DNA of 47,823 nt from NCBI GenBank assembly GCA_007376485.1, contig VMGJ01000004.1:72717-120539 (forward strand), written 5' to 3'. This stretch comes from Parcubacteria group bacterium Licking1014_17. GTDB taxonomy: Bacteria > Patescibacteriota > Minisyncoccia > 2-02-FULL-40-12 > IGHO2-01-FULL-4-A. Numbering within the stretch: the stretch's first letter is position 1; the number at the start of each line of letters is the position of its first letter. The translations under genes and the position numbers were made by a program. Positions 3,350-38,056 of this stretch are shown one piece after another. The notes under the pieces are model-generated. The model was not told the DNA's origin. It did not search any database and saw only the letters and a list, made by a program, of their open reading frames with translations.

Positions 3350-3537
3350 GGGGCTGATGTGTTTTTCGGGACTGGATTTTCTCCATGGCCTCGACTGAGC
3401 TCAGCCGAAGTCCGAAGAAAATCCATCTGGTGAAGTCGTTGTCATTTGTCAAGATATTCGTCCGCTCTAGGCGGACTCAATCATTGACAAAACCATGCTG
3501 ACAGCGACTTCAACAGCCCTCAAAACACATCAGCCCC
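3350..3537 (-). repeat. Long multibranched palindromic element A (tandem-G.A hairpin family)
   Basis: Terminal stem GGGGCTGATGTGTTTT-GA-GGG / CCC-GA-AAAACACATCAGCCCC, with internal stems GGATTTTCT/AGAAAATCC and TGAAGTCGTTGTCA/TGACAGCGACTTCA. Confidence 0.8.
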
Positions 3538-3543
3538 GCCTGT

Positions 3544-4011
3544 TTATCGTCTTCTTTCATTAATTTTGTAAAGCGCTATCCCCGTCGCTACAGCGACATT
3601 CAACGATTCTTTTTTGCCGTGCATTGGGATTTTAATGACGTTATCCGTGTATTTGAGAATAATTTTACTCAAGCCCTTTTTCTCATTGCCGACCATCAAA
3701 GCCAGTGGAAACTTCGGTTTGTATCGGGCTAATAAACTGCTTTTCTCGTTTATCTCCAGGGCGGCAATACGGTAGCCCTTACTTTTCAAGTTTCTCAAAA
3801 GTTCCCAGGTGTGGTTATATTTTTTCCAAGGGACGACTTTTTCGGCGCCGAGGGAAGTTTTGGCGACTTTCTTGCTGTTTGGCGTCGGCGAATAGCCACA
3901 GATAAAAACCTCGCTGACCCCCATGGCATCGGCGGTGCGCATTATGGAGCCCACATTATATGCGCTTCTTACGCAATGGATTACCAGCGCCAATTGTTGC
4001 TTAAACTCCAT
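3544..4011 (-). CDS. SpoU/TrmH family RNA 2'-O-methyltransferase
   Basis: N.GSI.RTA, GNE..GL and IPM.G..ESLNVA SPOUT motifs. Confidence 0.92.
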   Translation of the reverse strand: MEFKQQLALVIHCVRSAYNVGSIMRTADAMGVSEVFICGYSPTPNSKKVAKTSLGAEKVVPWKKYNHTWELLRNLKSKGYRIAALEINEKSSLLARYKPKFPLALMVGNEKKGLSKIILKYTDNVIKIPMHGKKESLNVAVATGIALYKINERRR

Positions 4012-4053
4012 GTATGCTATATTACTATCATATAATATTTAATTAATAAACCT

Positions 4054-4812
4054 ATGAACGAAAATCAAAAAAAGGTTCTTTTTTGGGTGGGGATAATAGC
4101 CGGTATTTCGCTGATTATCTTCCTTTTGGTCAGCGCTCAGCACACCTATAATACAGCGGCGACGACCAACACGGTTTCGTTTTCCGGCGAGGGTAAAGTG
4201 ACAGCGAAACCGGACATTTCGGTAATGAATTTCACCATTGAAACCCGCGCCGCCGATTCAAAAACCGCCCAGGACAGCAATACCAAGAAATCCAATGCCG
4301 TCGTGGACTATCTGAAACAGCAAGGCGTTGAAGACAAAGATGTCAAAACGTCCTCTTATTTCATCCAGCCGGAATACGGCGCTTGGTGCTACTATCCGAA
4401 ATGCAATCCCGAAAGACCGGGGAAAATCATCGGCTACATAGTTAACCAAGGTTTCGAGGTAAAAATCAGGGACTTAACGAAAGTGAGCATCATTACCGAT
4501 GGCGTGGTGACAGCGGGCGCCAATCGGATTGATGGCATTACTTTTACCATTGAAGATACTGACGCGCTGAAGGCAAAGGCGAGGGAGGAAGCTATTAAGA
4601 AAGCGAAACAAAAAGCCGTCGAACTTGAACAGCAGGTGGGTATTGATCTGGGTAAAATCGTAAACTTTTCCGAGAGCGGTAATTTCCCCGTGCAGATGGC
4701 GTATGATAAAGCCAATCTGGGTATAGGCGGAGGTGGCGGCGCTGGCCCGTCGCTTCCCACCGGCGAGAACGATATCGTGGTTGATGTGACAATAACGTAT
4801 CAAATAAAATAA
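4054..4812 (+). CDS. SIMPL domain (YggE/BP26-like) membrane-anchored protein
   Basis: N-terminal TM helix, V.FSGEG.V.AKPD, GAN.I.GI.F and the C-terminal V.V.ITY strand. Confidence 0.88.
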   Translation: MNENQKKVLFWVGIIAGISLIIFLLVSAQHTYNTAATTNTVSFSGEGKVTAKPDISVMNFTIETRAADSKTAQDSNTKKSNAVVDYLKQQGVEDKDVKTSSYFIQPEYGAWCYYPKCNPERPGKIIGYIVNQGFEVKIRDLTKVSIITDGVVTAGANRIDGITFTIEDTDALKAKAREEAIKKAKQKAVELEQQVGIDLGKIVNFSESGNFPVQMAYDKANLGIGGGGGAGPSLPTGENDIVVDVTITYQIK

Positions 4813-4865
4813 CAGCCGGTATAGTCGGTCAATTATCAGTTAATCGATTTACTTGGTTATAAAAT

Positions 4866-5174
4866 ATGAGTGGGTTTATAGAAGATATGCCAGGCAAAAG
4901 CCCCGAGGATGATATAAGAAATGAGGGATTGAGAGAAATCAAAGGAATCATTCGCGAAAATTCCGACAGGGGAGCCTCAATCATTAGAGAAGCACTTACT
5001 AAATTTGTTGCGGGCGGTGGCACCGACAAGGATTTAGATAAATTTATGGACGACATCAGAGAGGTATTTTTAGATGGCATGAAAAGAGTAGACCAATCGA
5101 TGAAACAGCATAAAATAGATAAAGCCAATCTTGATTTCAGCTCGCCGGAAATTTCAGAGAAAGACGACGAATAA
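4866..5174 (+). CDS. Hypothetical protein (102 aa, charged)
   Basis: ATG ORF co-oriented with the SIMPL gene and followed by a terminator. Confidence 0.6.
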   Translation: MSGFIEDMPGKSPEDDIRNEGLREIKGIIRENSDRGASIIREALTKFVAGGGTDKDLDKFMDDIREVFLDGMKRVDQSMKQHKIDKANLDFSSPEISEKDDE

Positions 5175-5198
5175 ATAAAATAAGGATCTATAAACACT

Positions 5199-5536: not shown

Positions 5537-6445
5537 CATGTTCTTCCACGTGTTTCCACGGGCATGGACTATATCTTCACCCAGCTCCGATTTAAAAGAC
5601 TGGGGCTGGGGCCGACGTGTTATGGCGCATAATCTAAGCGCCATCCGATCCTTTTGGATCAAGTCTCTACAGGGCCAGGAAAATCACATCTTCAACCGAG
5701 TTTATACCGCATTGAAGGAATTATATAGTCTACAATTAGGTTGTGGAATTTTTGGGCGGACGATTTATTTATGTACATTCTATAATGCCCATGATTTTTT
5801 TCTAAACCCATGCTTAAGTCGTACATCTTTGACAGCATTCCTTTTATTTTCACATTTTCTTCGTCAGTAAACGACTGCGAATTAATGTGATATCCACGAA
5901 AGTACCCACTTGCCTTAATTGCATTTCCATCATCCATAAACCAAACTGCTAATGTTACTGGATTTTTAAGATAGGCATCTATATTTGAGGGGATAATCTT
6001 TCTACCATTTCTATAAAATTCATTTCTTAATTCTGTTCTTAATTCTGTTATTTCTCTATGACTGACAGTTCTAAACTGGAACGAATTATTCCACCCATCT
6101 AACTTTGGTGCTGTTAGCACCCATTCTTTAAAGATCTCATATTTCCAAAACACATAATCTTTGTGTTTTATATTATGATTGACTTTCAATTTATAGTTCG
6201 TTTTTGACCAATTTGGTTCAAGATGTCCATCCCCAAGTATGTTGCCTATTAACACCGCCCTTTGATATTCGGTCAATGTTAATTTCTTGATGAGGTTTCT
6301 AATTTCAGTTGAATATGTGATTTTCCTAGCTTCCCTCGGTATTACCTGCATACCTTATTTTAGCACAAAATAAGAGTGAAGGCTTCACCGATTTCAGTCA
6401 GATTTGTTGTCAAGATTGCTCTTGACAAGTCGCTCATTTTATTGG
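5537..6445 (-). mobile_element. Group I intron after 16S U1498 (909 nt)
   Basis: Splits AAGTCGT|AACAAGG. The 5' exon ends in U and pairs with IGS GCGACTT; the intron ends in G; R (GTAGAGACT) and S (AAGATATAGTCC) core elements are present. Confidence 0.92.
5692..6351 (-). CDS. Intron-encoded LAGLIDADG homing endonuclease
   Basis: LIGNILGDGHL and LAVWFMDDG motifs; lies inside the S1498 intron. Confidence 0.92.
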   Translation of the reverse strand: MQVIPREARKITYSTEIRNLIKKLTLTEYQRAVLIGNILGDGHLEPNWSKTNYKLKVNHNIKHKDYVFWKYEIFKEWVLTAPKLDGWNNSFQFRTVSHREITELRTELRNEFYRNGRKIIPSNIDAYLKNPVTLAVWFMDDGNAIKASGYFRGYHINSQSFTDEENVKIKGMLSKMYDLSMGLEKNHGHYRMYINKSSAQKFHNLIVDYIIPSMRYKLG

Positions 6446-6572
6446 ACGACTTAGTCCTTGTTACCGAGCCTACCGTAGTGCCATTTATAAATAAACGGAC
6501 CTTCGGGTATTCCCGGCTCCCCTGACTTGACGGGCGGTGAGTGCAAAGCTCGAGAACGTATTCACCGCGGCG

Positions 6573-6611
<39 letters not shown>

Positions 6612-7133
6612 GCAAGTTTCAGCCTCCAATCCGAACTGAGGGCGTATTTGATGGGATTAGCTCCGCCTTACGGCTTGGCAGCCCATTGTTGCGCCCATTG
6701 TATCATGTGTGTAGCCCAGGGTATCAGAGGGCCACGCTGACTTGACGTCATCCCCGCCTTCCTCCCGGTTAACCCGGGCAGTCTTGCCTGACAACATATA
6801 ACAGGCAACGGGGGTTGCGCTCGTTTACCCACTTAAGGGAACCAGTCGCCTGACGAGCTGACGACAGCCGTGCAGCACCTGTACAGCACCCTCGAAGGCG
6901 GCCCGACTTTCGTCAGGCTTGCAGCTGTATTTCAAACCCTGGTGAGGTTTTTCGCTCTGTGTCGAATTGAACCACATGATCCACCGCTTGTGCGAGCTCC
7001 CGCCTATTCCTTTGAGTTTTAATCTTGCGATCGTACTTCCCAGGCGGCAGACTTAACGCGTTAGCTACGCCACTGGGAGGGTCGATGCTCCCAATAGCCA
7101 GTCTGCATCGTTTAGGGCGTGGACTACAAGGGT

Positions 7134-8127: not shown

Positions 8128-8404
8128 ATCTAATCCTTTTTGATCCCCACGCTTTCGCGATTGACCGTCAGCAAAGCCCTAGCAAGCTGCTTCCGCTTTT
8201 GGTGTTCCGTGTGATATCAACGCATTTCACCGCTACACCACACGTTCCGCTTGCCTCTGACTTGCTCTAGCCCGTACGTTTCTGACGCGGTTTCACCGTT
8301 AGGCGGTGAGATTTAACGACAGACTATACGAGCCGGCTGCTCGCGCTTTACGCCCAGTAAATCCGGATAACGCTCGAGGTCTCTGTATTACCGCTGCTGC
8401 TGGC

Positions 8405-9270: not shown

Positions 9271-9485
9271 ACAGAGTTGGCAACCTCTTATTCTCGTGGT
9301 ACCGTCATTGTTCTTCCCACGCAAAAGGAGTTTACAATCCGAAGACCTTCTTCCTCCACGCGGCGTCGCTCGATCAGGCTTTCGCCCATTGTCGAATATT
9401 CTCGGCTACTGCCACCCGTAGGTGTATGGACCGTGTCTAAGTTCCATCGTTGGGGAACACGCTCTCACGCCCCCTACCCGTCGTA

Positions 9486-9520
<35 letters not shown>

Positions 9521-9698
9521 AGGACCTAGGCCGCTCCTGAAGCGTCTTGCGACTTTACTCTTGCGAGACCATCGGGGATTAGTTCGCCTTTCGGCGAATT
9601 ATACCCGTCTTCAGGGCACGTACCAGGGTGTTACTAACTCGTTTGCCGCTATACAAAATCCTTGCAGACTCTGTATCGCACGACTTGTATGCCTTATC

Positions 9699-9738
<40 letters not shown>

Positions 9739-12920: not shown

Positions 12921-13092
12921 TCCGTCCAGCCGGAACGTCTTTTCGTCACGTTCAAGATTCTCCAGCGGAATCTCTCACTCGCTAGAGGCTGTGGATTCGG
13001 CAATAGTTGGCTATACGCCAGATATTATACTATTGCCGACCAATCAATCCACAGCCTCTAAGCGGCCTCAAAGACATTCCGGCCTGGACGGA
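12921..13092 (-). repeat. Long palindromic element B (tandem-G.A hairpin family) at the defence-island edge
   Basis: TCCGTCCAG(G)CCGGAATGTCTTT-GA-G / C-GA-AAAGACGTTCCGGCTGGACGGA; inner stems TAGAGGCTGTGGATT/AATCCACAGCCTCTA and TCGGCAATAGT/ACTATTGCCGA. Confidence 0.8.
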
Positions 13093-13158
13093 CCTATACT
13101 TATTGATATGAAAAAAGTCGGCTCGCTTTTGGCCGTATCTGCCATGTATTACGGGCTA

Positions 13159-13536
13159 CTACAGATTTACTTCTTTTATTTCAAGCTGGGATTTTCCTTC
13201 TTTTTTGGGCTGCTGAAAGTTTATGAGAAGACCGTGTTTGATTTTAAGGATTTTCATGTAGCCTTTGATCTGAACTTCTTCCGACGGACCCATGGCTCCG
13301 CCAACGGCTTTTAACTCAAGGATAAACTTGTTTTTTCCGGAGCCGACGATAATGTCCGGATATCCCTCACCGACATAATGGTCTTTATATTTGAGCTCCA
13401 CCACCTTCTGGCTTTCGTATTTAATCTTAGCCAAACGAAGTCCCACCTGCATTGCTTTATCGTAAACATCCTCCGAAAACCCCGAACCCAGTGATTTATA
13501 AACATCCTTTACGATTTTAATGATTATTCTGTTCAT
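13159..13536 (-). CDS. GxxExxY family PD-(D/E)xK nuclease-like protein
   Basis: LG.GFSEDVY, D.IV, ILELKA, Q...Y and GLLINF motifs. Confidence 0.9.
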   Translation of the reverse strand: MNRIIIKIVKDVYKSLGSGFSEDVYDKAMQVGLRLAKIKYESQKVVELKYKDHYVGEGYPDIIVGSGKNKFILELKAVGGAMGPSEEVQIKGYMKILKIKHGLLINFQQPKKEGKSQLEIKEVNL

Positions 13537-13569
13537 AATTTGTTTATTATTTTTTAAGATATTTCATTA

Positions 13570-14586
13570 TTACTTACTTAGTTTTCGCAATAATGAAACA
13601 AATTTCTCAACTTGCTCCCCGTTTTTAAAGTAGCCACCATAATAATTATCATCCCATCCATATCCTTTTTCGGTTGTGCACGGTGGTAAATAATTTTTTA
13701 TATCCTGTGCTTTAGTTTTGAAATATTGTTGAAAATGAGGTAATCGAATTTCAATAAATAGCCCCTTATTTTGATTGCTGTATTCCGGGAGTATGCTGAT
13801 AATTGACCTCCTGCTTTTTTCTTTGCCGGCTATGCCTATAAATACGATACTACTTCTTGTGGTAGCAATGTATTCAATATATTTTTTTATTTCATTAACC
13901 GACTTATTATACAAATCGCCAACTCCATTTTTTATTGCGATATTTTCAAGCTCCTCCACCGTTAATGGCGGCTTTCGTTTTGAAGTAGATTTAGATTGTG
14001 TGCGGTAGTCGGCCTCGCTCGGTTCTATCAAAAATACTCTCGCCATAAATTCCTTGCCGCCATGTTTAAAATATTGAAAGGTCGCTATATTGATACTCAC
14101 CCCGTAAGTTTTTGATAGATACTCGATAATCCTTTCAGAACTATTATCGATTTCTGATCCAACAATAAGCATTTTATGGTGCTCGTTAAGGGTTTCTGGC
14201 AGCTCGGTGCCAAATTTTTCCATGAATGCATCTTCGAGTGTCCTTTTGGTGCCAAAATAATTTTTCGCGATGTTACTGATCTTTTCATTCGTTAAGCCTT
14301 CAACCCATGATGCGTAATCCAGCACTTGAGCAACTATATCTCGCGGTGTTTTGTCACGTTTTAGTTCAATTATTATGAGATCGCCATTATAGTCCAGACA
14401 CAATAAATCAATTACCCCATCAAAATCCGTCTCAATTTGGCGTCCTATCACCAAAAAATCATTAGATATGGTTGAAATATCGTTTTCAGCCCATGTTTCC
14501 AGCCTCTCTTCAAGATTAAGTTTATCCTTTTTTACCTCGTGTAATTTTTCTTCTATCACTTCCCAAATTTTTATATCTTGTGCCAT
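13570..14586 (-). CDS. NucS/DUF91-like PD-(D/E)xK endonuclease domain protein with an unknown C-terminal domain
   Basis: E..LE.W, IGRQ, IDLL.LD..G.L.IIELKR and Q.LDYA motifs; start MAQDIK at 14586. Confidence 0.8.
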   Translation of the reverse strand: MAQDIKIWEVIEEKLHEVKKDKLNLEERLETWAENDISTISNDFLVIGRQIETDFDGVIDLLCLDYNGDLIIIELKRDKTPRDIVAQVLDYASWVEGLTNEKISNIAKNYFGTKRTLEDAFMEKFGTELPETLNEHHKMLIVGSEIDNSSERIIEYLSKTYGVSINIATFQYFKHGGKEFMARVFLIEPSEADYRTQSKSTSKRKPPLTVEELENIAIKNGVGDLYNKSVNEIKKYIEYIATTRSSIVFIGIAGKEKSRRSIISILPEYSNQNKGLFIEIRLPHFQQYFKTKAQDIKNYLPPCTTEKGYGWDDNYYGGYFKNGEQVEKFVSLLRKLSK

Positions 14587-14692
14587 ATTATTATTTATAA
14601 GTTTATATTTAAATTTTTTACGATTTTGATTTTTGCCGATGGGATTTTGCAAAAAATATCTGATGCCTTTTTTTATCTCTCGTTATTTATTT

Positions 14693-15115
14693 TTATATCT
14701 CACTTATTAATTTTACTAAGTGTTCGGGATCCCAACTCCAAAAAGTAATTTCATTCTCCCTAATGAATTTAGGTAATGTTGTTCTTTCTACGCCCTTTAT
14801 AGCCATAGTTATAATTGTTTTTTTCTCCTCGCCACTTGTCTCTAGTTCCCAATCAACCCATCTACTTTTGTGTGTGGTTTCGCCGATTAAACAAATGGTT
14901 ACACTTGCCCTCTTGATTTGTTCTCGGATAACTCTCTTTATATAGTTTGCATTGAGACTATCAATTGGTTCTTTAATTGACTCATCATAAAATTCAAGCT
15001 CAAAATTGGGATTATCTTTTAATAAACGCAGCCCCCTCACATGGTCTAGATCCTCAGACGCAAAGCTTAAAAACACTCGTTTCTTTTCTTTTGAATTGTG
15101 ATTATTGTGATACAT
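14693..15115 (-). CDS. TIR-domain protein (MTH538/DUF1863, ThsB-like)
   Basis: RVFLSF, IK..I...I..ASVTICLIG.TT..S.WVDWE with the catalytic Glu. Confidence 0.88.
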   Translation of the reverse strand: MYHNNHNSKEKKRVFLSFASEDLDHVRGLRLLKDNPNFELEFYDESIKEPIDSLNANYIKRVIREQIKRASVTICLIGETTHKSRWVDWELETSGEEKKTIITMAIKGVERTTLPKFIRENEITFWSWDPEHLVKLISEI

Positions 15116-15124
15116 AAAATTATT

Positions 15125-17455
15125 TCATTTAAACGATTCTACTTTAGCATATAAGCTTTTCTGAAACGCGAAGAAAACAGAGCGTATATCCTCTACCCCA
15201 CCCAATGCCTCTTCCGCATCAGCAATAGCGTGGTACTTCAGATTTAAAAGGATTGGCAATTTTTCCTCATCAAGTTCTTCCACGCCTCTGTCTTCATATT
15301 TTGCCAGCACGAATTCCAAAAATTCTTTTTGCCGCGCGTCTAACCCTTCAAAAATCTTTGCTCTCGCTTGTTCTACTCTTTGCTTCCTTGTAATCGGTTG
15401 AGTTACGAAAGAAATATACGCCAAAACATCAAACAGATCACTTTGCTCCGCGTTTATCATTTTTTGCAGTGTTTCTAACTCATCCTTGCCATAGCCAAGC
15501 GTACTGATTTTTTCCAAAAAAGTTTTCCGTGTTATGGGATTAGACCAGATTTTGCGAAGCTCTTCTTCGCTCTTGAAAAACTCAGGCAATGCTCCAAACA
15601 TATTATCCATAAATTCTTTTACAGAAATCGGCTTACCGTCCGCGCTCCAAAACGAGGTGGTAATCATATGCTGAATCTCTCGCTCCTTGCCGTCACGTAG
15701 CTTGATTAATAATGTTTTCATAGGTTCTTCTGGCGGTTCGGGTGGGAGTGGTAACTCTTTCGGTTCTTCGAGTTCTTTTGATTTGCGTGGTTCTTTCTCT
15801 GTAGTTTGATCTATCGGCTCGCCATCCCATTCAGGATCAGAAAAATGATGATAAGCATTTACAAAATCAAGGATCGTAAAGTATTCTTTGCCATCAAAAA
15901 GACGGGTGCCACGTCCAATAATCTGCTTAAACTCGATCATAGAATTAACTGGCCGCATCAAAACGATGTTCCGGATGTTGCGCGCGTCCACGCCTGTCGA
16001 AAGCTTTTGCGAAGTGGTCAAAATTGTAGGGATTGTTTTCTCGTTGTCCTGAAACTCACGCAAATATTGCTCACCACGGGTGCCGTCATTGGCAGTTACA
16101 CGTACGCAATAATTCGGTGCTTTGCTTATCTTGAATTGATTTATTAAATCCCGAACGGCAAGGGCGTGATCTTGTGTGGCACAGAACACGATCGTTTTTT
16201 CATTCTGGTTTATTTCGCTTAACATTATCTTTACCCGTTTTGCTTCCCGTGCCTTAATCTTAATGATTCTATTAAAATCTTCTTCCTGGTAAATTTTACC
16301 TTCTTCAACCTCGCCCTCAATAATCTGGTCATCGGATGTGTAGACGTACTCATCCAAAGTGGTCTGAATTCGCTTAACTTTAAATGGCGTCAGAAAGCCA
16401 TCATTGACTCCTTCCTTTAGTGAGTAGATATAGACCGGATCGCCAAAATATTTGTAGGTATTAACATTGTCTTTTCTTTTTGGTGTTGCAGTCAAGCCGA
16501 GCTGTACGGCCGGAGAAAAGTATTCCAAAATGCCACGCCAATTGCTTTCATCATTTGCGCCGCCGCGATGACATTCATCTATAATAATAAAGTCAAAAAA
16601 GTCCGGCGGATAATCACCAAAATACGGCGTATCGCCAGGCCCGCTCATAAATGTTTGAAAAATGGTAAAGAAAACGCTTCCGTTCGTGGGTACGCCGCCC
16701 TTCTTTCTTATATCTAATGGATTAATCCTTACCAGCGTATCCTCTGGAAATGCCGTGAAAGTATTATATGCCTGATCAGCGAGGATATTTCTATCGGCAA
16801 GAAAAAGAATTCTCGGCCGTCTCCCGCCGTCACATTGCAAGGTCCACCTTGTTTGATATAGCTTCCATGAAATCTGAAACGCGATCGCTGTTTTTCCAGT
16901 GCCAGTAGCAAGTGTTAGTAAAATTCGTTTTTTATTTTCGGCTATGGCGTTAGTGGCATTATTAATAGCTATCTCTTGGTAGTATCGCTTTCCAAGCTCT
17001 CCTTCTAATGGAATAGAAGCAAATTTTTCTTTCCATTTGTTTTGACCTGCCTCGCCGGCGGGCGGGTCAGAATAAACGGTATTCCACAGCTCTTCCGGTG
17101 TCGGGAATTTCTCTATGTAGCCCTCCTTACCGGTTTTCATTGATATCTGGTAAATCTCTTTGCCGTTAGTCGCATATGTGTGCTCGATCTTCAATTTCTC
17201 GGCGTAGGCTTTGGCTTGTGCGACACCCTCGGTTGCCGACAAGTTTTCTTGTTTGGCTTCAATCACTGCCAATTTCTGATTTTTGAAAACTAAGATATAG
17301 TCGGCAATTTCCGGCTTGGCTCGTATTCCGCCAGTCAAAATGCGCCCTTCGGTAATGCGAAACTCCCGAAGAATTTTTGATCCTTCTACTTCACCCCAGC
17401 CGCTCGCTTTTAACTTTGGATCAATATATTCGGCTCTTGTTTCCGCCTCATTCAT
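15125..17455 (-). CDS. hsdR: Type I restriction enzyme R subunit (EcoEI-like)
   Basis: ADY..VIEAK nuclease motif, ATGTGKT, DECHRG, LTATP and QIIGRGTR; ATG at 17455 overlaps the fic stop (ATGA). Confidence 0.95.
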   Translation of the reverse strand: MNEAETRAEYIDPKLKASGWGEVEGSKILREFRITEGRILTGGIRAKPEIADYILVFKNQKLAVIEAKQENLSATEGVAQAKAYAEKLKIEHTYATNGKEIYQISMKTGKEGYIEKFPTPEELWNTVYSDPPAGEAGQNKWKEKFASIPLEGELGKRYYQEIAINNATNAIAENKKRILLTLATGTGKTAIAFQISWKLYQTRWTLQCDGGRRPRILFLADRNILADQAYNTFTAFPEDTLVRINPLDIRKKGGVPTNGSVFFTIFQTFMSGPGDTPYFGDYPPDFFDFIIIDECHRGGANDESNWRGILEYFSPAVQLGLTATPKRKDNVNTYKYFGDPVYIYSLKEGVNDGFLTPFKVKRIQTTLDEYVYTSDDQIIEGEVEEGKIYQEEDFNRIIKIKAREAKRVKIMLSEINQNEKTIVFCATQDHALAVRDLINQFKISKAPNYCVRVTANDGTRGEQYLREFQDNEKTIPTILTTSQKLSTGVDARNIRNIVLMRPVNSMIEFKQIIGRGTRLFDGKEYFTILDFVNAYHHFSDPEWDGEPIDQTTEKEPRKSKELEEPKELPLPPEPPEEPMKTLLIKLRDGKEREIQHMITTSFWSADGKPISVKEFMDNMFGALPEFFKSEEELRKIWSNPITRKTFLEKISTLGYGKDELETLQKMINAEQSDLFDVLAYISFVTQPITRKQRVEQARAKIFEGLDARQKEFLEFVLAKYEDRGVEELDEEKLPILLNLKYHAIADAEEALGGVEDIRSVFFAFQKSLYAKVESFK
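17046..17066. repeat. 21-bp GC palindrome inserted in frame in hsdR (PPAGEAG)
   Basis: CCTGCCTCGCCGGCGGGCGGG; related to 44283-44303. Confidence 0.7.
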
Positions 17456-18324
17456 ACGCCAATTTTCCAAACATTCTTTTCCAGAAAAGCTTCGATGGTT
17501 TGGCGATTAGCTTTATTGATGAGATTCGAATGGGAGAGTTTCTTGCTCTTTGCGTACTCAGCGAGCGTCATAATTTTCTTGCCTTCTAAATACGCTAATC
17601 GCTTATGGTAGCTATTTGTGAGCGCTTTCCCTACGATTTCTTCCATAAGATCGGCTTTATTTTTTAGATCAAACTCTCTAAATGCTTCGTAGTATCTTTT
17701 TCGATCAATGAATTTGATATTAATGGAAACAAATCCCTCCCGAATCAGCAAATAATTGTTGATGACGCGTCCAATACGACCATTGCCGTCAATGAATGGG
17801 TGGGCATACTCAAACCCAAGATGCAATCGCGCGATACGCTTGATAATATTTTCGTGACTTGTTGCATGATACTCCGCAAGCATCTTTTTAAGACGATCTT
17901 GTGACTCTTGCGGACTTGGGGATATGTGAGTTCCGATACGGACATATTCATCATTCATGCGAAATCTTCCGGCAATGTCATCACGGATATTCGAAATCAG
18001 CATTTTATGAAGTGATAAAATGACTTCAAGAGAAAGCTCTTGCTCTTTAGCTCTCGTATCAATATAACTGACGACACGCGCAAGGTTTTTTGCCTCAAAA
18101 ATTTCACGTTGACTGATATATCTATCCAAGTCAATTTGGAGAAGAATCTTTTCCGTTTCCTCAAGCGTCAGTGTGCTGTTTTCGATAGCGTTGGAGTTGT
18201 AAACCTGCTCGGCAACTTCTGCTTCTGATATAAGCTTAATAAGCGCATCCTTGCCTATGGAAGCCTTATAGTATCTCTCGCGGAGAGAACTTATCTTACT
18301 GTATACATTGAGTGTTTTTGCCAT
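17452..18324 (-). CDS. Fic family protein with an N-terminal inhibitory motif and a C-terminal HTH-like tail
   Basis: HPFIDGNGRIGR catalytic motif; SNAIEN matches (S/T)xxxE(G/N). Confidence 0.92.
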   Translation of the reverse strand: MAKTLNVYSKISSLRERYYKASIGKDALIKLISEAEVAEQVYNSNAIENSTLTLEETEKILLQIDLDRYISQREIFEAKNLARVVSYIDTRAKEQELSLEVILSLHKMLISNIRDDIAGRFRMNDEYVRIGTHISPSPQESQDRLKKMLAEYHATSHENIIKRIARLHLGFEYAHPFIDGNGRIGRVINNYLLIREGFVSINIKFIDRKRYYEAFREFDLKNKADLMEEIVGKALTNSYHKRLAYLEGKKIMTLAEYAKSKKLSHSNLINKANRQTIEAFLEKNVWKIGV

Positions 18325-18332
18325 ATATTGGT

Positions 18333-18361
18333 ATTCTAATCTTTCTTCACTCTTTTGTCAA
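18333..18361 (-). promoter_or_regulatory. Internal sigma70 promoter for fic-hsdR-TIR
   Basis: TTGACA-17-TAGAAT, 8 nt before the fic ATG; inverted repeat CGTGAAA..TTTCACG just upstream (18368-18402). Confidence 0.65.
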
Positions 18362-18409
18362 CATAATCGTGAAAAGTGTAAGCAAATCACCATGCTTTCA
18401 CGGTTATGA

Positions 18410-19612
18410 CTACAATTTCCCCAAAAATGCCTCTTTCAGCACAGATTTTTTAAGCTCTTCCAAATCTGCTAGCTTTTTGCGATATACCTCCTCCAGTTTC
18501 CTCGTCTCCCCCGCCAACCCATCAAGCTTCTTGACGATGGACTTTTGCTCGGAAAGTGGCGGCAAGAATATTTTATGTTTTTCTATCTTCTCGATCGTTA
18601 AGGCATTGTATGCCGAGCCTTGCGATAACTTCTTTATCTTTTCAACGAATGACATCAAAACAAATTTCATAAAGTACGAATCCGCGGAATCAAAATCCTT
18701 GAACCAAAGTACGTTCCCATCCTTAAAATAGAACTCCTCATTTTTTCCAACCACATAGATCTCACCGATTGTTCCCACGGCAGTCATAAGAATGTCGCCC
18801 TCCAATGGCACACCGAAAACATTTTTAATTTCAGAATATCTTTTTTTAGAAATGAATAACTCCACTGATATATCATGTCCGTTAGCCAGTTCCTTAATCT
18901 CCTTGATTCGATAAAATGGCACACCCTCTTTTACATATTCTTTCTTATAGATTCTCTTGCTTGATGTGATTTGCCCCAGTTCTTCAAGTCTCTTCTCTGC
19001 CCATCCCTTCCCCGGATTCGCAAACGCACCTTGTAAATATGACTCGAAAAGCTCGCGGGCGTTGCGCAAATTCTTTTCCGCATTCTCCTTCGCCTTCTCC
19101 ACCCCCTCAAAAACCTCATCCAACTTCCCTACAATCCGCCTCTGCTCGGCGATCGACGGGAGTGGGATTTCGATCATTCCTAAATTCTTCCGGCTAATTC
19201 TTTTTCTCGTTGTACCCGATGTTTTAGATTCAACATCTTGCAAATATTGATTTGTTTGTAAGTAGTAGTTAAAAAAATGCGGTAGTACTGCCTTATCTAG
19301 TCTTAAAATACTACAATCGACAGCTGTGATCATCTTCTCTTTAATATCAGGAATGACGCAAGCCCTACCGACAGGATCAGGTAAGCGCGACACCAAAATG
19401 TCGCCAGGCATTATTTCTGTGCATTTTAATCTTTTGAACGTCTTTTCAGAAATGTATCTCGCCTTTCCTCCCCTGTTTTTAAAAATTCCATTTCCTATAT
19501 TACCAGTTTGAATAAGCCGAATCCCTTCGTCTGATTGATCCTTGCTTTCAATCCAATTGCCGTCGGTAAAGAAATCACAAACCTCGCCAAGTTTTTTGGT
19601 TCGCCAGGTCAT
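18410..19612 (-). CDS. hsdS: Type I R-M specificity subunit
   Basis: Two TRDs; W..KKLGEVC, IPLPSIAEQRRIV, LPPLSEQK.IV and LKKSVLKEAF.GKL. Confidence 0.95.
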   Translation of the reverse strand: MTWRTKKLGEVCDFFTDGNWIESKDQSDEGIRLIQTGNIGNGIFKNRGGKARYISEKTFKRLKCTEIMPGDILVSRLPDPVGRACVIPDIKEKMITAVDCSILRLDKAVLPHFFNYYLQTNQYLQDVESKTSGTTRKRISRKNLGMIEIPLPSIAEQRRIVGKLDEVFEGVEKAKENAEKNLRNARELFESYLQGAFANPGKGWAEKRLEELGQITSSKRIYKKEYVKEGVPFYRIKEIKELANGHDISVELFISKKRYSEIKNVFGVPLEGDILMTAVGTIGEIYVVGKNEEFYFKDGNVLWFKDFDSADSYFMKFVLMSFVEKIKKLSQGSAYNALTIEKIEKHKIFLPPLSEQKSIVKKLDGLAGETRKLEEVYRKKLADLEELKKSVLKEAFLGKL

Positions 19613-19959
19613 TATTTAGGGGTTAACTGAGTGGCAAATTGATCCAATGATGCCACTTTCTTAATCTTTCCATTATAGACTCGCGACCTATAGTACAGAG
19701 CGACCACCGCACTGATTATTGCCAAAAAGGTAAAAGCGAACGCACTCCATAAAAGAGATGGGCTTTTGGCGCTCGTAATATACGCCGTCCAAAATCCTAC
19801 AGCGATGGAAAGCGAAATTGAAGCAAGTGAGAAAAAAACTTCATAATGACGAAGTTCATTCCCCTGTACAAGTTCTATTTGTACGCAAGAAGGTAAATAA
19901 ACCTCTACGGAAGTTTCATTTTTTGTTGCACCTGTTTTGGTTTTAATGGTTTGCTTCAA
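19612..19959 (-). CDS. Hypothetical membrane protein with two TM helices
   Basis: Two hydrophobic stretches (VFFSLASISLSIAVGFW; LLWSAFAFTFLAIISAVVALYY); stop coupled to the hsdS start. Confidence 0.75.
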   Translation of the reverse strand: MKQTIKTKTGATKNETSVEVYLPSCVQIELVQGNELRHYEVFFSLASISLSIAVGFWTAYITSAKSPSLLWSAFAFTFLAIISAVVALYYRSRVYNGKIKKVASLDQFATQLTPK

Positions 19960-19966
19960 GATAACG

Positions 19967-20401
19967 TTATTTAGTAAGTTCGGTCTCTACTATATTTTCT
20001 CCGGTTGCAGTTAGTTCCCATGCTTTCTTTGAATCTTTTTTTTCTTCTGCCTCCATAATACGGCCTCCGCGGATATTCATGTTTATTTTGTCATTAATAT
20101 TTAGCGGTAATGGAATCTTTGCTAAACGGAAGGCTTTTTTCAGATCATCAGTGTTAAACGGCATTATATTCTCCATATGTTCAATAAAGTATGCAATTAC
20201 TAGTGTACGCTTAACGTCATCGTCCACTTTTTTTGTCATAAGAAATTCCTTAATCGACAATTTCTTAATGTTACCCTGCGAGATAGTGGGCTCGTTACTA
20301 CTGAGCTGATTTTTTTCTAGTTTTTCAATCCTTTTTTCAATTCGTTGTTCAAATTTATCCATACGCGCCAATATTTTATGTTCAAAATCGTTATTCTCCA
20401 T
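19967..20401 (-). CDS. Hypothetical protein: N-terminal coiled coil plus a probable winged helix
   Basis: Ends W.LT.TGE, typical of wHTH wings; tight operon spacing. Confidence 0.7.
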   Translation of the reverse strand: MENNDFEHKILARMDKFEQRIEKRIEKLEKNQLSSNEPTISQGNIKKLSIKEFLMTKKVDDDVKRTLVIAYFIEHMENIMPFNTDDLKKAFRLAKIPLPLNINDKINMNIRGGRIMEAEEKKDSKKAWELTATGENIVETELTK

Positions 20402-20402
20402 A

Positions 20403-20798
20403 TTATTGTTGATTATTTTTTTTAAATCGTGCTATGACCCGTAGAAGTTTATAATTGGGCAAATAGTATTGGCCCTTGTCAGACTTAATATCCTTTGATT
20501 CAAGAAGTTTTTTTAGAGTGTTTTTGATACTTCCCTCTGGTGCAATTTCCAATTTGATAATTTCCAGTGGCGTAATCTTTTCATCTGAACCAAGAACAAG
20601 ACTTCTTGCCTTTACGGCACAGAGCACGATAAGAATTCTGTCAGCGTTTGTTAGTTCAAGAAACGTTCCTGAAAAATCAAAAGATTGTGTCTCCTTATTT
20701 ATTGACAAATATGGAGACAGCAAATCTGCGAGAGCCTGCCTATCGACCGCCTGTGATTCACTAACAATCAATTTTTGAAGTGGGTCTGATTGATTCAT
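20403..20798 (-). CDS. Hypothetical protein, probable winged helix
   Basis: ITPLEI...PEGSIKNTLKKL....I.SDKGQYYL pattern. Confidence 0.7.
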   Translation of the reverse strand: MNQSDPLQKLIVSESQAVDRQALADLLSPYLSINKETQSFDFSGTFLELTNADRILIVLCAVKARSLVLGSDEKITPLEIIKLEIAPEGSIKNTLKKLLESKDIKSDKGQYYLPNYKLLRVIARFKKNNQQ

Positions 20799-20920
20799 AA
20801 TTTTTAGTTATTTTTTACTCTCATAATTACTATTGTACTCCTGCATAGAAATAAATCAAGTCTTATATAAGTGACTTTCGCATTGAAATAGTTTTTATGT
20901 TCGCGGCTCCTGTAAGTACA

Positions 20921-20954
20921 ACAAAAAAACCCTTATATATAAGGGTTTTTTTGT
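20921..20954. terminator. Perfect 34-bp palindrome downstream of hsdM
   Basis: ACAAAAAAACCCTTATA|TATAAGGGTTTTTTTGT. Confidence 0.65.
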
Positions 20955-20997
20955 CATAATCCTTAGACACTCTAAGTCTGTAATAGTAACTGTATTT

Positions 20998-22452
20998 TTA
21001 CACCATTGATGCTATCTTTTCTAAGTTATCCACAGCCTCTGCATCTAACATCTTTATTTCTTTCAAAAGCTCTTTTGGACTTCGTAGTGCCACTTCCCCA
21101 CTTTTGTTGGGGTTTTTGACGGAGAGGTCGAAGGTGGTGGGGTCGATTTTGGAGGCGTCCACGCTCCATGAATTCTCGGAGTCGGTTTTGGTTTTTTGGA
21201 GATTTACGAAGTCGGCAAGATCGGATTCGTTGAGCGGATTGGTTTTGCCAAGATTGCGGGAAAGATTAAGCTGATAGTACCAGATTTTCTTGGTTGGCGC
21301 GCCTTTTTCAAAAAACAAGATTACTGTTTTGACACCGGCACCGGCAAAGACACCGCCGGGCAGATCAAGCACAGTGTGGAGATTGCAGCTTTCAAGGAGT
21401 AACTTGCGCAAACTGACCGAGGCATTGTCGGTGTTGGAAAGAAAAGTATTTTTAATAACGATACCCGCTTTGCCACCGGCTTTAAGAATTTTTACAAAAT
21501 GCTGGAGGAATAGAAATGCCGTCTCGCCGGTTTTGATGGGAAAGTTCTGTTGAATTTCTCTTCCTATGCCGGCGCCGAAAGGCGGATTTGCCAGAATAAT
21601 ATCATAGCGGTGTTTTTCTTGAATGTCGTTTATGTTTTCTGCAAGGGTGTTGGTATGAAGAATATTCGGGGCTTCAATGCCATGCAGAATCATATTCATT
21701 ACGCCGATAATATAAGCAAGTGATTTTATTTCTTTGCCATAGAATGTGTCTTTTTGAAGTTTTACTGATTCAGCAGTCGATAAATCATTACTTTTCTTCA
21801 GATAGTCAAAAGCCTCCACAAGAAAACCCGCCGAGCCACACGCGCCATCGTAAATCTTGTTGCCAACTTTGGGCGCAACTACTTTAACAATTGCCTTAAT
21901 GAGCGGCCGGGGCGTGTAATACTCTCCGCCGTTGCGGCCGGCATTACCCATCTTTTTAATTTTCTCTTCGTAAAGATGGGAAAGCTCATGTTTTTCATGG
22001 TCGGTACGAAAGTGCATACCGTCAACAATATCCAAAACCTCGCGAAGTCTGTATCCGCTCTGTATCTTATTTTTCAGCTCAATAAATATCTCGCCGATTT
22101 TGTATTCAATAGTGTCCGGGCTGTCGGCTTCTGCTCTGAATTTTTTCAGATATGGGAATAGTTTGTCATTCACGAAATCTCTTAAATCATCGCTCGTGAG
22201 CGCTTTATTATGATCCAGCTTGCCGTCGGCTGTTTTTGGTTCGACCCACGCCTCCCAGCGATATTGCGGGGCGATAATAAATTCGTGCTTCTTGCCGGCA
22301 AGCGCCGCTTCAGTCTTTTTAGTCTGCTCTAAATCATCAAGATATTTCAAGAAAAGAATCCATGAAGTTTGCTCGATATAATCAAGCTCGGTGGCGCATC
22401 CCGCGTCCCGGTGCAGTATATCATCTATATTTTTGAAAGATTGTTCAAACAT
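20998..22452 (-). CDS. hsdM: Type I R-M N6-adenine methyltransferase subunit
   Basis: GEYYTPR, YDGACGSAGFL and LANPPF motifs. Confidence 0.96.
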   Translation of the reverse strand: MFEQSFKNIDDILHRDAGCATELDYIEQTSWILFLKYLDDLEQTKKTEAALAGKKHEFIIAPQYRWEAWVEPKTADGKLDHNKALTSDDLRDFVNDKLFPYLKKFRAEADSPDTIEYKIGEIFIELKNKIQSGYRLREVLDIVDGMHFRTDHEKHELSHLYEEKIKKMGNAGRNGGEYYTPRPLIKAIVKVVAPKVGNKIYDGACGSAGFLVEAFDYLKKSNDLSTAESVKLQKDTFYGKEIKSLAYIIGVMNMILHGIEAPNILHTNTLAENINDIQEKHRYDIILANPPFGAGIGREIQQNFPIKTGETAFLFLQHFVKILKAGGKAGIVIKNTFLSNTDNASVSLRKLLLESCNLHTVLDLPGGVFAGAGVKTVILFFEKGAPTKKIWYYQLNLSRNLGKTNPLNESDLADFVNLQKTKTDSENSWSVDASKIDPTTFDLSVKNPNKSGEVALRSPKELLKEIKMLDAEAVDNLEKIASMV

Positions 22453-22673
22453 AGGGATTAAAAACGACGTCAGATACTTTTTCCCTTATTTGTCGGCATT
22501 TTACCTCATTTCCGGGAAATTTTCAATGGTGATTTTTATCTTAATGCATTTCGGACTGGCCAGGACAAAAAAGATGTTAATATTTTCCTGTTCAGAGATC
22601 CCCTATTTTCTTGACCCCTCAAAACAAAAATTGGCAAAAATGCCAATTATAAGGGGGGTGGTTGGTTTTTTGT

Positions 22674-23267
22674 TTATTGTTGTTTAATTAATCGGATAAG
22701 TTCGGGAAATTCTTTCTGGTTGAAATGCCCGCGGTCTTTAAATATGATCGCCTTGGCTTTTGGCAGTTGTTTCCGAAACGCTGCGAGCTCACTGAACGGA
22801 ACAGAGGGGTCGTCTTTGCTGTGAAAAAGGTAAATATTTTTTGTTTGTTCACTTATCTTTTTTAGAGATTTCGGAAGTAAAAAATCCCCTATGTCCTCGG
22901 TTCTATTGTGTGGTGAAGCAATAAGAAACAACTTCTTAATCCGCTTTGGAAAATCATTTTCCGCTAAATATTTTGCGAGAAACATCCCGCCGAGAGAATG
23001 ACCGATAAGAATAACCTCACCATTTAAGAATGGGAACATTCTCTCAAACCAAATTTTCCATTCTTCATATCGGGCGTTCGTTTTATTCGGCATTCGCGGC
23101 ATGAGAACGTCATAACTTTTTCCAAGCTTTTGAGGTAATGTCACCTTCCAGTCCTTATAGTGCCTAAATTTATCAATAGTGACTTCCCAATTTTTGAGTG
23201 ATGAGATGTATTCTTTATAGGTATTAAACGAATCCCCGCCCTGAATTACTATAATTTGTTTTGCCAT
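22674..23267 (-). CDS. RBBP9/YdeN family alpha/beta hydrolase
   Basis: GHSLGG, HSKDDPSVP and GHF catalytic triad motifs. Confidence 0.9.
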   Translation of the reverse strand: MAKQIIVIQGGDSFNTYKEYISSLKNWEVTIDKFRHYKDWKVTLPQKLGKSYDVLMPRMPNKTNARYEEWKIWFERMFPFLNGEVILIGHSLGGMFLAKYLAENDFPKRIKKLFLIASPHNRTEDIGDFLLPKSLKKISEQTKNIYLFHSKDDPSVPFSELAAFRKQLPKAKAIIFKDRGHFNQKEFPELIRLIKQQ

Positions 23268-23288
23268 AAATTTATTTAACTAGACTAC

Positions 23289-23395
23289 CCCGAAAAATAC
23301 AAGCGAGCCGACTTTTTTGAGGGCTCTTGAGATTGCCGCCTTTCCAATCGGGGAATGTGTCTTTAAGCAGTACAGCGAGCCAGTTGGCGGACTGC
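23289..23395 (+). repeat. Truncated or miniature tandem-G.A family element D
   Basis: 23352-23385 matches 37931-37964 at 32/34; 23289-23323 forms CCC-GA-AAAA..TTTT-GA-GGG. Confidence 0.7.
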
Positions 23396-34159: not shown

Positions 34160-34164
34160 GCCAT

Positions 34165-35605: not shown

Positions 35606-35622
35606 ACCCGTATGTTTTGAAA

Positions 35623-37251
35623 TTATTGAATTGCTTTTTCAATGAAGCCTTTGAATAAGGGGTGGGGAGATAAGGGGCGGGATTTAAATTCGGGATGGAA
35701 CTGGGTCGCCAGGAAAAATTTATGTTTCGGCAGTTCGATTATTTCCACCAGATTTGTTTTGGGATTTGTTCCCGAAACGACGAGGCCGTTTTTTTCCAGA
35801 GCGGAAACGTAATCATTGTTGACCTCGTATCTGTGGCGGTGGCGTTCCAAAACCACTTTTGTGTTGTACAGTTTTCTGGCAAACGTTCCGTTTTTCAGTT
35901 CGCAGGCGTAGCTGCCGAGCCGCATTGTTCCGCCCATATCTTTTTTGGAAATATTAACGGCTTGGTCGGGTATTGTGCTTATTACTGGATGGGGCGCCGC
36001 AGGGTCGATTTCCGTCGAGTGAGCGCCTTTAAGTTTGCAAACATTTCTCGCGTAATCAATGACCGCCATTTGAAGCCCGTAGCACAGCCCCAAAAACGGA
36101 ATATTATGATTCCGGAGATATTCAATCGCCTTTATTTTCCCCTCTGTTCCTCTTGTCCCGAAACCGCCCGGAACAATAACTCCGTGGTAAGACTCCAGTT
36201 CTTTAAGAGATTTGGAATCCTTCTCGTAATCCTCGGCGTTGAGCCAGACAATTTCCGGTTTTCTGCCCAATGACCAAGCCGCGTGTTTCACGGCTTCAAT
36301 GACAGAAATGTACGAGTCTTTTAAAGTGTAAGAGCCGCTGGCGAAATATTTGCCGACTATTCCGATTTTGACCGGCTTAGCGGATTTTTTAATGTTCTCA
36401 ATCAGTTTCTGCCACGCTCTGCCGTTTTTGCTTTTGGGTTTGATCCCAAGTTTTTCTATTAATCTCAAGCTGATTTTATCTTTTTCAAAGTTGACGGGAA
36501 TTTCGTAGATATTTGAAACATCAGGCGCGGAAATGACATCCTCCGGCTTCACGCTGCAGAATATCGATATTTTTTTCTTGCGGATAGCGTCAATCGGCGA
36601 CGACGCTCTGGCTATGATAATATCCGGCTGAATACCGGCGGTATTCAATGTCCTGACCGCGTATTGGGTCGGTTTCGTTTTCATTTCGCCCAAACTGCTT
36701 GGTACGGGCAGGTAACTGACAAGAACAAACAGAATGTTTTCCGGCTTCTGAAGTTTCAGCATTCTGGCGGCTTCAAGATAGACGAGGTTCTGATATTCGC
36801 CAACGGTTCCACCCACTTCCACTATCACGACTTCAGCTTTTGTTTTATGGGCAGCTACGTTCAAGCGCCTTATTACCTCTTCCGGTATATGAGGAACGGT
36901 TTCAACGCATTTGCCTCCAAATTCAAGATTTCTTTCTTTCTGAATTACGGTGAGATAAACTAGACCGCTTGTCATGTAATTGTCTTTTAGAATATTTTCG
37001 TCCAGAAATCTTTCGTAGTTTCCGATATCCTGATCACATTCCATCCCGTCTTCGGTAACAAAAACCTCCCCGTGTTCAATGGGATTCATAGTTCCGGCAT
37101 CAACGTTTAAATAGGGGTCAATTTTTACGGCAGTGGCTCTAATCCCAAGATTTTTTAGAATTCTGCCGATTGAGGCGACCGTAACGCCCTTGCCGATCCC
37201 CGACATTACTCCGCCAAAGATAAAAACGAATTTTGTCTGGTCTCCAGCCAT
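35623..37251 (-). CDS. pyrG: CTP synthase
   Basis: GGVMSGIGKG, KIDPYLNVDAGTM, GLCYGLQ and QFHPEF motifs. Confidence 0.98.
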   Translation of the reverse strand: MAGDQTKFVFIFGGVMSGIGKGVTVASIGRILKNLGIRATAVKIDPYLNVDAGTMNPIEHGEVFVTEDGMECDQDIGNYERFLDENILKDNYMTSGLVYLTVIQKERNLEFGGKCVETVPHIPEEVIRRLNVAAHKTKAEVVIVEVGGTVGEYQNLVYLEAARMLKLQKPENILFVLVSYLPVPSSLGEMKTKPTQYAVRTLNTAGIQPDIIIARASSPIDAIRKKKISIFCSVKPEDVISAPDVSNIYEIPVNFEKDKISLRLIEKLGIKPKSKNGRAWQKLIENIKKSAKPVKIGIVGKYFASGSYTLKDSYISVIEAVKHAAWSLGRKPEIVWLNAEDYEKDSKSLKELESYHGVIVPGGFGTRGTEGKIKAIEYLRNHNIPFLGLCYGLQMAVIDYARNVCKLKGAHSTEIDPAAPHPVISTIPDQAVNISKKDMGGTMRLGSYACELKNGTFARKLYNTKVVLERHRHRYEVNNDYVSALEKNGLVVSGTNPKTNLVEIIELPKHKFFLATQFHPEFKSRPLSPHPLFKGFIEKAIQ

Positions 37252-37253
37252 TT

Positions 37254-37805
37254 TTATTTTTGGCTGAAATCAACTTTGACGACTTCGCGCTCCTTTTCGC
37301 CGATTTCAAAGAATTCTTCTTTCTGGAAGCCCATCATTGAGGCGATAATATTTGTCGGAATTGTCTGAATTTTGGTGTTGTAAACCAGAACGTTGGAGTT
37401 GTAGAACCTGCGGGCAGCCTGGATTTTATTTTCGGTGTCGGACAGCTCTTCCTGAAGTTTCATGAAGTTCTCGGAAGCGCGGAGAGTCGGATACGCTTCG
37501 GCGACGGCGAACAAGCTCTTGAGGGTACTACTCAACGCGTTTTCGGCTTTCATTTTTTCTCCGACTGTCGTCGCGCTCATGGCGGCGGCGCGGGCTACCG
37601 TAACGTTTTCGAAAACTTGTTTTTCGTGAGCCGCGTAACCCTTCACGGTTTCAACCAAATTCGGGATCAAATCATAGCGGCGTTTCAGCTGGACGTCTAT
37701 GTCCGACCATGATTCTTTGACGCGATTCCGGCTTCTGACGAGCGTATTATACGAAAGCACGAGCCAGAGAGCTATGACGACAATAATTGCGGCGATGATT
37801 GGCAT
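37254..37805 (-). CDS. lemA: LemA family protein
   Basis: [28 protein letters not shown] and E.YP.L.A.ENF. Confidence 0.96.
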
Positions 37806-37926
37806 ATTATTATTGGCACATGACGCCTTTTAAAAAGCGGCATGCGAGTTATTTTTAATAACATTTAGTATAATCCTATCCATCCCGCGTGGCAACACTT
37901 AGTATAAGCGGATAATTTCCTACTTA

Positions 37927-38056
37927 TGAAGGAATGTGTCTTTGAGCAGTATAGCGAGCCAGTTTTGCTTGGTCTCCCGAAGGGAGAAAACTGGCGAGGT
38001 ATAAGTGAAGGCTTCGCCGGAAAGCCCGAACATCTGCGAAAAGATGTATTCCTTCA
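37927..38056 (+). repeat. Palindromic element C (tandem-G.A hairpin family)
   Basis: TGAAGGAATGTGTCTTT-GA-GCAG / CTGC-GA-AAAGATGTATTCCTTCA; inner stem GCCAGTTTT/AAAACTGGC. Confidence 0.8.

Follow-up and report, generated by a model that had tools for sequence, protein, structure and literature searches.

Branched hairpin repeats in a Patescibacteria genome: a structure-conserved, strand-biased family with a putative single-stranded DNA form

A stretch of 47,823 nucleotides from the genome of Parcubacteria group bacterium Licking1014_17 (assembly GCA_007376485.1, contig VMGJ01000004.1, positions 72,717 to 120,539; hereafter the window) contains four intergenic hairpin elements, which we refer to as A, B, C and D. 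Our analysis indicates that these elements are best read as members of a Patescibacteria superfamily of gene-less, structure-conserved interspersed repeats, comparable in kind to REP, ERIC and Correia repeats. More specifically, we consider them, with moderate confidence, to be structure-dependent interspersed DNA repeats that act as a folded single strand and are recognized by a putative trans-acting reader. A preliminary description of this DNA, made from the letters alone, had inferred a mobile or recombination element. That inference holds to the extent that the elements are multi-copy, covarying and inserted DNA; the named analogues offered with it (REP, IS200/IS605 ends and attC) fail on their defining proteins or layout.

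The source genome spans 790 kb in 11 contigs and is 99.75% complete. Further copies, which the preliminary description had proposed to seek, are present in number: counting those of the window, 29 are of C-type, at least 14 of A-type and 3 of B-type. A search of the genome with nhmmer identified 27 full C-type copies, one diverged copy and D, and a covariance model made from 26 C-type copies (R1) gave 29 C-type matches, the full-length copies scoring 84-161 bits. The A-type copies were collected by BLAST and alignment, and the B-type copies by BLAST. Together the three types occupy 6.6 kb, or 0.83% of the genome, and are scattered over nine of the 11 contigs in both orientations.

The three types, represented by 15 folded copies, share one plan. 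From the outside inward, the closing stem (13-24 bp) is followed by a 2x2 internal loop, usually a tandem G.A mismatch, by a helix of 3-4 bp and by a three-way junction. On its 5' side the long arm has a bulge of 7 nt, which reads GCUUGGU or, in A-type copies, GCAUGGU; the short arm carries the loop CGCUGGA, and the whole unit measures 125-190 nt. The outer 3-10 bp of the closing stem vary in sequence from copy to copy, with complementarity kept. C-type and B-type units are also found within an A-type shell. A, B and C had been thought to differ in their interiors; this view is not borne out, as the Y-shaped plan is homologous in all three, down to the motifs of the bulge and the loop.

The motif UUU-GA-G / C-GA-AAA, by which the elements were originally grouped, is found in A, B and C. 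As described before, the strand to which it belongs (the GA strand) is the minus strand in A and B but the plus strand in C and D. Element A (3350..3537, minus strand), a full A-type copy delimited by its fold, the alignment of A-type copies and its gene neighbours, separates the stop of a SpoU methylase gene from the RNase HII gene. Its closing stem measures 16 bp and leads to the tandem G.A, the three-way junction and a long arm with the bulge; the CGCUGG loop of its short arm holds an extra inserted hairpin. Element B (12921..13092, minus strand), a full B-type copy identified by its fold and by two further copies on contigs C6 and C4, has a closing stem of 24 bp; a PD-(D/E)XK nuclease gene ends on one side of it, and rpsP (S16) lies on the other. 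Element C (37927..38056, plus strand), a full C-type copy with a row in the C-type alignment and an R1 score of 144.7 bits, folds between the acetate kinase stop and a LemA gene. The three are real and very stable branched hairpins (RNA-fold z = -10.2, -10.4 and -5.2 for A, B and C, respectively, with none of 200 shuffles as good), and in each the GA strand has the lower fold energy: -106.5 versus -97.4 kcal/mol for the complement in A, -99.2 versus -88.8 in B and -54.9 versus -45.3 in C.

Element D (23293..23385, plus strand) is a truncated composite, assigned through repeat family D9 (94%), and is located behind the rnc (RNase III) stop. It is made up of an A-type left part and a C-type left arm, its GA strand lacks the 3' half, and it has no significant fold (z = -0.13). 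The reported match of 32/34 positions between D (23352-23385) and the left arm of C was reproduced. The homology in fact extends over 23293-23385, where a composite copy at C6:8146-8230 aligns along 85 nt with 93% identity. D is a broken copy of an A-type-shell composite. The neighbouring hairpin at 23289-23323, said to carry the same motif in permuted form, has the letter pattern; its fold stability (z = -0.45) is within the shuffle range.

Covariation, the check proposed for the family, is strong. In the C-type alignment (26 copies), 23 of 42 pairs show changes on both sides with pairing kept, and 96.2% of cells pair compared with 86.5% in shuffled alignments, a level reached by none of 500 shuffles. 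Sliding the partner columns by 1-3 positions lowers pairing to 32-53%. In the A-type alignment, 33 of 57 pairs have at least two Watson-Crick types. The folding strand can also be told: G-U pairs exceed A-C mismatches by 86 to 23 in C-type and by 54 to 11 in A-type copies, part of the C-type excess tracing to one inherited column, and in every one of the 15 folded copies the GA strand has the higher stability. Because of the G-U excess and the higher stability on the GA strand, it is this strand that is under pairing constraint. Judged from these sequence patterns, recognition of one folded strand is plausible.

Some of the changes carry signs of arm-to-arm copying at the DNA level. A GA to TC change recurs in which two adjacent bases become the exact complement of the opposite arm. 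Among 27 C-type long-arm tips, five are perfect palindromes with zero spacer and five more have a 2-nt centre, and three different 22-nt palindromes differ from one another symmetrically, including at the central bases that are unable to pair in a hairpin. In the closest C-type pair (94.6% identical), two matched pairs of transversions distinguish the outer stems. Perfect stems and multi-base compensating changes are reported to arise by template switching in replication (PMC8794818). Part of the covariation may therefore not reflect selection on an RNA. The kept mismatch, the wobble excess on one strand and the conserved bulge and loop go beyond what arm copying would produce, and thus point to a reader of one folded strand.

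The tandem G.A mismatch, tallied by eye from the alignments, is intact in 24/26 C-type, 9/14 A-type and 2/3 B-type copies; its conservation, which the preliminary description had made a central feature, is therefore real and yet not universal. The 5' GA is replaced by TC in 4/14 A-type copies and one of the three B-type copies. This TC is the exact complement of the 3' GA, so that the helix runs through with perfect pairing. Of 18 matches in relatives, inspected by eye, about half retain GA/GA, and ordinary pairs take its place in at least three. The bulge and loop are kept more widely than the mismatch, and on these alignments the tandem G.A appears frequent but dispensable. A kink-turn, which would call for a bulge of three nucleotides beside the tandem G.A and for a binding protein of the L7Ae type, was considered and rejected, as the loop is a symmetric 2x2 loop without a bulge and L7Ae (PF01248) has no match in the genome.

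The elements lie 8-75 nt past stop codons and are closer to the upstream stop than to the next start. In the window, and in agreement with the description of elements close after stops, the upstream stop codon is 6 nt away from A, 10 nt from D, 11 nt from C and 66 nt from B. No confirmed gene contains any of the 47 loci; the lone apparent overlap, with the RNase HII reading frame, is upstream of the protein's domain. Of the 32 tandem contexts, 26 have the GA strand antisense to both neighbour genes and six have it sense (p = 5e-4; 47 loci), and of the other loci nine lie between convergent and five between divergent genes. The GA strand is on the C-rich strand at 36 loci and on the G-rich strand at 11 (p = 3e-4), and on contig C11, where the GC skew changes sign near 145 kb, element orientation flips as well. 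Gene direction and skew coincide, so that a replication cause and a transcription cause of the bias are hard to separate. Chi sites were rejected as an explanation, since the strand bias runs counter to that reading.

In the window all flanking genes are on the minus strand, so that A and B have their GA strand in the sense orientation, and C and D in the antisense orientation. From this mixture the preliminary description had argued against a cis-acting element of the mRNA. The argument was built on four copies; A and B turn out to be among the few sense copies, and genome-wide orientation is strongly biased. A cis-acting 3'-end element in the transcript of the upstream gene, whether as a hairpin that stabilizes the mRNA, as a terminator or as a site of processing (by RNase III, for example), would be in keeping with the position of the copies past stop codons, with closing stems of 13-24 bp, which are long enough for RNase III given the stem length that this enzyme requires, and with the copy behind rnc both here and in one relative. 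However, the 26 antisense contexts place the worse-folding complement, with its A-C mismatches, in the mRNA; no U-tract follows the stem in the copy sequences; the neighbours are unrelated housekeeping genes; and the rnc-rpsP site is empty in 9/24 relatives (see below). We therefore regard this explanation as very unlikely.

An independently transcribed small RNA family is also unlikely, if somewhat better founded. Each copy, or a subset of the copies, would be transcribed from the GA strand to give an RNA of 125-190 nt, with the bulge and loop bound by a protein or an RNA. The strong covariation, the conservation of unpaired nucleotides at the junctions, bulge and loop, the wobble-pair excess on the GA strand and the preservation of the motifs across families of the class all speak for such an RNA, and tandem G.A is a common RNA motif. 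Against it, a -10-like box upstream of 46 loci has no fixed position (seven lie at 10-19 nt, compared with two on the control side) and, as stated, the stem is not followed by a U-tract. Truncated, chimeric or nested copies exist, copy number is 29 here versus 0-3 in relatives, the arm tips are zero-spacer palindromes and not stable RNA tetraloops, and there is no Rfam match. The last point agrees with the earlier remark that no named family was recognized: Rfam 15 gives no match at A-D at gathering thresholds, and at E<=10 the best score is 18 bits, compared with cut-offs of 35-180. Hammerhead and other ribozymes were rejected for want of a core and of an Rfam match, and retron or diversity-generating retroelement (DGR) RNAs were rejected because none of the four reverse transcriptases in the genome is adjacent to an element.

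The elements extend beyond the source genome. Sixty relatives of the same order, all from other genera, were scanned with R1, and 12 of them contain matches (1-3 copies each, 28-70 bits); among 150 other genomes of the class, seven do. Neighbours in the relatives are, again, unrelated housekeeping genes, such as rpoC, ribosomal protein genes, frr, holA and others. Searches of phage and plasmid collections gave no match for C or A. We found no description of these elements in CPR (candidate phyla radiation) bacteria in the literature, and one 2026 preprint on noncoding families makes no mention of Patescibacteria.

Empty sites in relatives, another of the proposed checks, are found between rnc and rpsP. 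We compared this gap, measured between the rnc stop and the first position of the S16 match, in 24 relatives of the same family. In nine it measures 38-117 nt and is without an element; in eight, 476-1058 nt separate the two genes, consisting mostly of folded DNA or a gene; and in the remaining seven, as in the source genome, no rpsP was detected next to rnc within the locus. Empty (G022) and filled sites coexist in one genus. An element stands behind rnc both in the source genome and in relative G020, whose fill is the only one that R1 recognizes; other hairpin families fill the rest. The elements are thus inserted DNA, and not a gene-specific cis element or a part of the neighbour genes. The rnc-rpsP spacer itself appears as a family-wide hot spot, ranging from 38 nt to more than 1 kb and holding several different hairpin families.

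In the window this site is occupied by a defence island of about 10 kb (13100..23290, minus strand), delineated by Pfam scans and by synteny in the 24 relatives. The island is bracketed by B, before rpsP on its left border, and D, behind rnc on its right border, in inverted orientation. It encodes a PD-(D/E)XK nuclease, a NucS-like protein, a ThsB-type TIR protein, a serine hydrolase and the type I restriction-modification proteins HsdR, HsdS and HsdM, with a Fic/DOC gene between hsdR and hsdS, and also holds three small open reading frames (ORFs) without a family. Three more inverted pairs bracket accessory genes, namely a DNA methylase with a small ORF, a membrane-type ORF and a glycosyltransferase. 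The genes between inverted pairs include a 234-codon membrane-type ORF and a 204-codon ORF, neither of which has a Pfam family or looks like an enzyme. The gene beside B (PDDEXK_3) was rejected as a partner of the elements, since it co-occurs with R1 matches in only one of the 12 positive relatives. A small hairpin repeat of about 30 nt, with GGTCAA ... TTGACC arms, adjoins several A- and C-type copies (for instance, at C6:5648-8777 and C8:36624-39762), so that the intergenic gaps are mosaics of several repeat families.

As partners of the elements, the preliminary description had looked to HUH enzymes and tyrosine recombinases. The former are not borne out: the Y1 transposase/RAYT family (PF01797) has no match in the genome, in a search whose control matched 6/14 genomes. 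The TnpB zinc-ribbon (PF07282), the IS91-type Y2 transposase and CsrA likewise have no match in the genome, nor does Rep_1, for which the control search was also without a match. A tyrosine recombinase does exist, as one Xer-like gene of 307 codons; it is a single gene, the copies are dispersed, and there are no cassette arrays. This gene (C9, 27000-28600 region), the only one of its kind in the genome, is directly followed by an A-type copy. The GC skew of C9 passes from minus to plus near 32 kb, which may mark a replication origin.

It follows that ends or derivatives of HUH elements (IS200/IS605, or REP with RAYT) and integron attC sites are largely refuted as an explanation, and we give them next to no weight. 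In their favour, the elements are hairpins with a conserved mispair that could direct strand choice, and they stand outside genes, behind stops. IS200/IS605 ends and PATE are rejected because the 99.75% complete genome lacks Y1 TnpA and TnpB matches, and attC sites because the copies are dispersed in both orientations, with a lone recombinase and no arrays; R'/R'' core sites were not searched for. REP units are short (about 20-40 nt), and the present elements are 3-5 times longer. The elements resemble the REP/REPIN-RAYT system in that those repeats, too, are extragenic multi-copy hairpins with compensating changes and persistence in lineages, and are thought to act as single-stranded DNA (PMC3116915, PMC8266576). 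They differ in that the present units, of 125-190 nt, contain a three-way junction and are not inverted pairs of short REPs, and no RAYT/Y1 is present here.

A further possibility is that the elements are targets of small GIY-YIG nucleases of the Ssn type, which would bind the hairpin on one of its strands, with an effect on recombination or DNA uptake. Ssn enzymes are GIY-YIG proteins of 94 residues that cut hairpin repeats only as single-stranded DNA and on one strand, and their NTS/SRM repeats in Neisseria surround particular genes (PMC11893778). The present elements would resemble that system in strand-specific recognition of a single-stranded hairpin; they share its clustering around particular genes, and inverted element pairs here bracket restriction-modification and other accessory genes. 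Small GIY-YIG genes are also abundant: the genome has five (89-126 codons by open-frame length), and homologues are found in 53/60 relatives in 1-13 copies. Several observations nevertheless make this reading unlikely. The elements are 4-6 times longer than NTS/SRM repeats, and the degenerate search motif published for SRM (PMC11893778) has no match on either strand of the genome, compared with 0-5 in five shuffled genomes. No GIY-YIG gene is flanked on both sides; only one of the five full-length genes has an adjoining copy (C-type, 65 nt downstream), and that gene looks UvrC-like from its sequence (by eye), while no copy stands next to a sixth, broken match. The three paralogues of 89 codons are accompanied by different inverted repeats of their own. 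Finally, GIY-YIG presence does not track the elements, being seen in 10/12 R1-positive and 43/48 R1-negative genomes.

The kind of repeat to which the elements belong is familiar. ERIC/IRU and Correia (CREE) repeats of Enterobacteria and Neisseria are gene-less, long imperfect hairpins of 100-170 bp with many intergenic copies, for which we know of no dedicated transposase, and Correia hairpins are substrates of RNase III. The present elements are likewise gene-less, intergenic, multi-copy imperfect palindromes, in a comparison of general properties. They differ in having a branched Y core with unpaired motifs, a variable closing stem, no TA duplication and a strong strand bias. Rickettsia palindromic elements (RPE) are palindromic insertions of about 100-150 bp in a reduced genome, also without a known transposase to our knowledge, and are often found in frame inside genes, a setting in which none of the present 47 loci is found. 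The features of orphan interspersed palindromic repeats, a functional grouping and not one of homology, are all seen here: the elements are gene-less, multi-copy, intergenic, about 100-200 bp long and variable in presence and absence. Classical MITEs were rejected, as the outer 3-10 bp of the stem differ by copy and no direct repeat was seen in the flanks of 28 copies (by eye). Novel with respect to ERIC, Correia, REP and RPE are the conserved, branched core, the stem of free sequence, the strand bias and the link to defence-island hot spots.

The elements have multiplied in this lineage; they settle closely after stop codons and at a small number of intergenic hot spots where defence islands enter as well. 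For the structure-dependent DNA repeat we propose the following mechanism. Each copy would work in folded, single-stranded form through its GA strand, most probably as DNA, and a putative trans-acting factor would read the conserved unpaired bulge and loop. The stems may be kept partly by selection and partly by arm-to-arm template switching in replication. The more stable hairpin strand would be tolerated on the strand antisense to genes, which is also the leading-strand template, and the orientation bias may thus be a survival filter against hairpin deletion. Trinh and Sinden reportedly found in 1991 that stable hairpins on the lagging-strand template are prone to deletion. A general role of lagging-strand hairpins is described elsewhere (PMC7999016).

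Several points weigh against the proposal as a whole. The single-stranded DNA state of the elements is one that we infer. The bulge and loop are conserved across families of the class, which fits a functional RNA equally. At four of the five loci where gene direction is opposed to skew, the elements follow gene direction, and the bias could reflect function instead of survival; in relatives it is weak, at about nine antisense versus seven sense (by eye). The flanks of the 28 copies show no target-site duplication by eye, no conserved termini were seen among the copies, and no element-moving enzyme was identified among the families searched in the genome. No empty site is near enough to define insertion boundaries, the best metagenome relative having 76% protein identity (HsdS query) and short contigs. 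With these points in mind, we suggest only tentatively that the repeats are a new class of structure-defined, strand-specific mobile DNA in ultra-small bacteria, which would spread without a recognizable transposase. It might do so by fork template switching that copies the core into hairpin tips, or through an unrecognized single-stranded DNA enzyme that reads the bulge and loop, with the entry points of defence islands as landing sites.

The window holds other repeats as well. A separate T-shaped hairpin repeat of 63 nt has three copies (9790-9852, 39268-39330 and C9:15993-16056) with a DNA-fold z of about -9. Three cassettes of 281 bp, each with an 89-codon GIY-YIG gene (C9:55413, C6:86115 and C10:9485), are bracketed by inverted repeats that agree with the termini of this hairpin (TCCCGAA ... 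TACGGGA), and from this match the 63-nt hairpin may be a gene-less derivative of the cassette. Two large insertions, each containing an ORF (7194-7946 and 8462-9115), split the 16S rRNA gene (6393-9736, minus strand). Immediately downstream of the gene is a third, related ORF (5692-6351), and the three share a 36-nt stretch (repeat family D2). At the contig end, about 1.1 kb with a HIT-domain gene and two ORFs without a family is bracketed by an inverted repeat that is perfect over 143 nt, in two adjoining arms (99 and 44 nt; 46361-46503 and 47640-47823). This segment could be invertible or mobile, or could be an assembly fold-back. G+C-rich palindromes of the GGCGGGCGGG family are found at the site of the 143-nt repeat and at three other sites.

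Genomes of the candidate phyla radiation are among the smallest and most streamlined known. That the A-, B- and C-type elements fill about 0.8% of such a genome means that the repeats need an explanation. For RNA discovery they carry a caution, as the strong covariation seen here may stem partly from DNA-level arm copying. The elements also sit at the entry hot spots of restriction-modification and Thoeris-like genes, which links them to the acquisition of defence genes. If they are indeed moved or copied via a folded single strand, without a known transposase, they would represent a new route of genome change.

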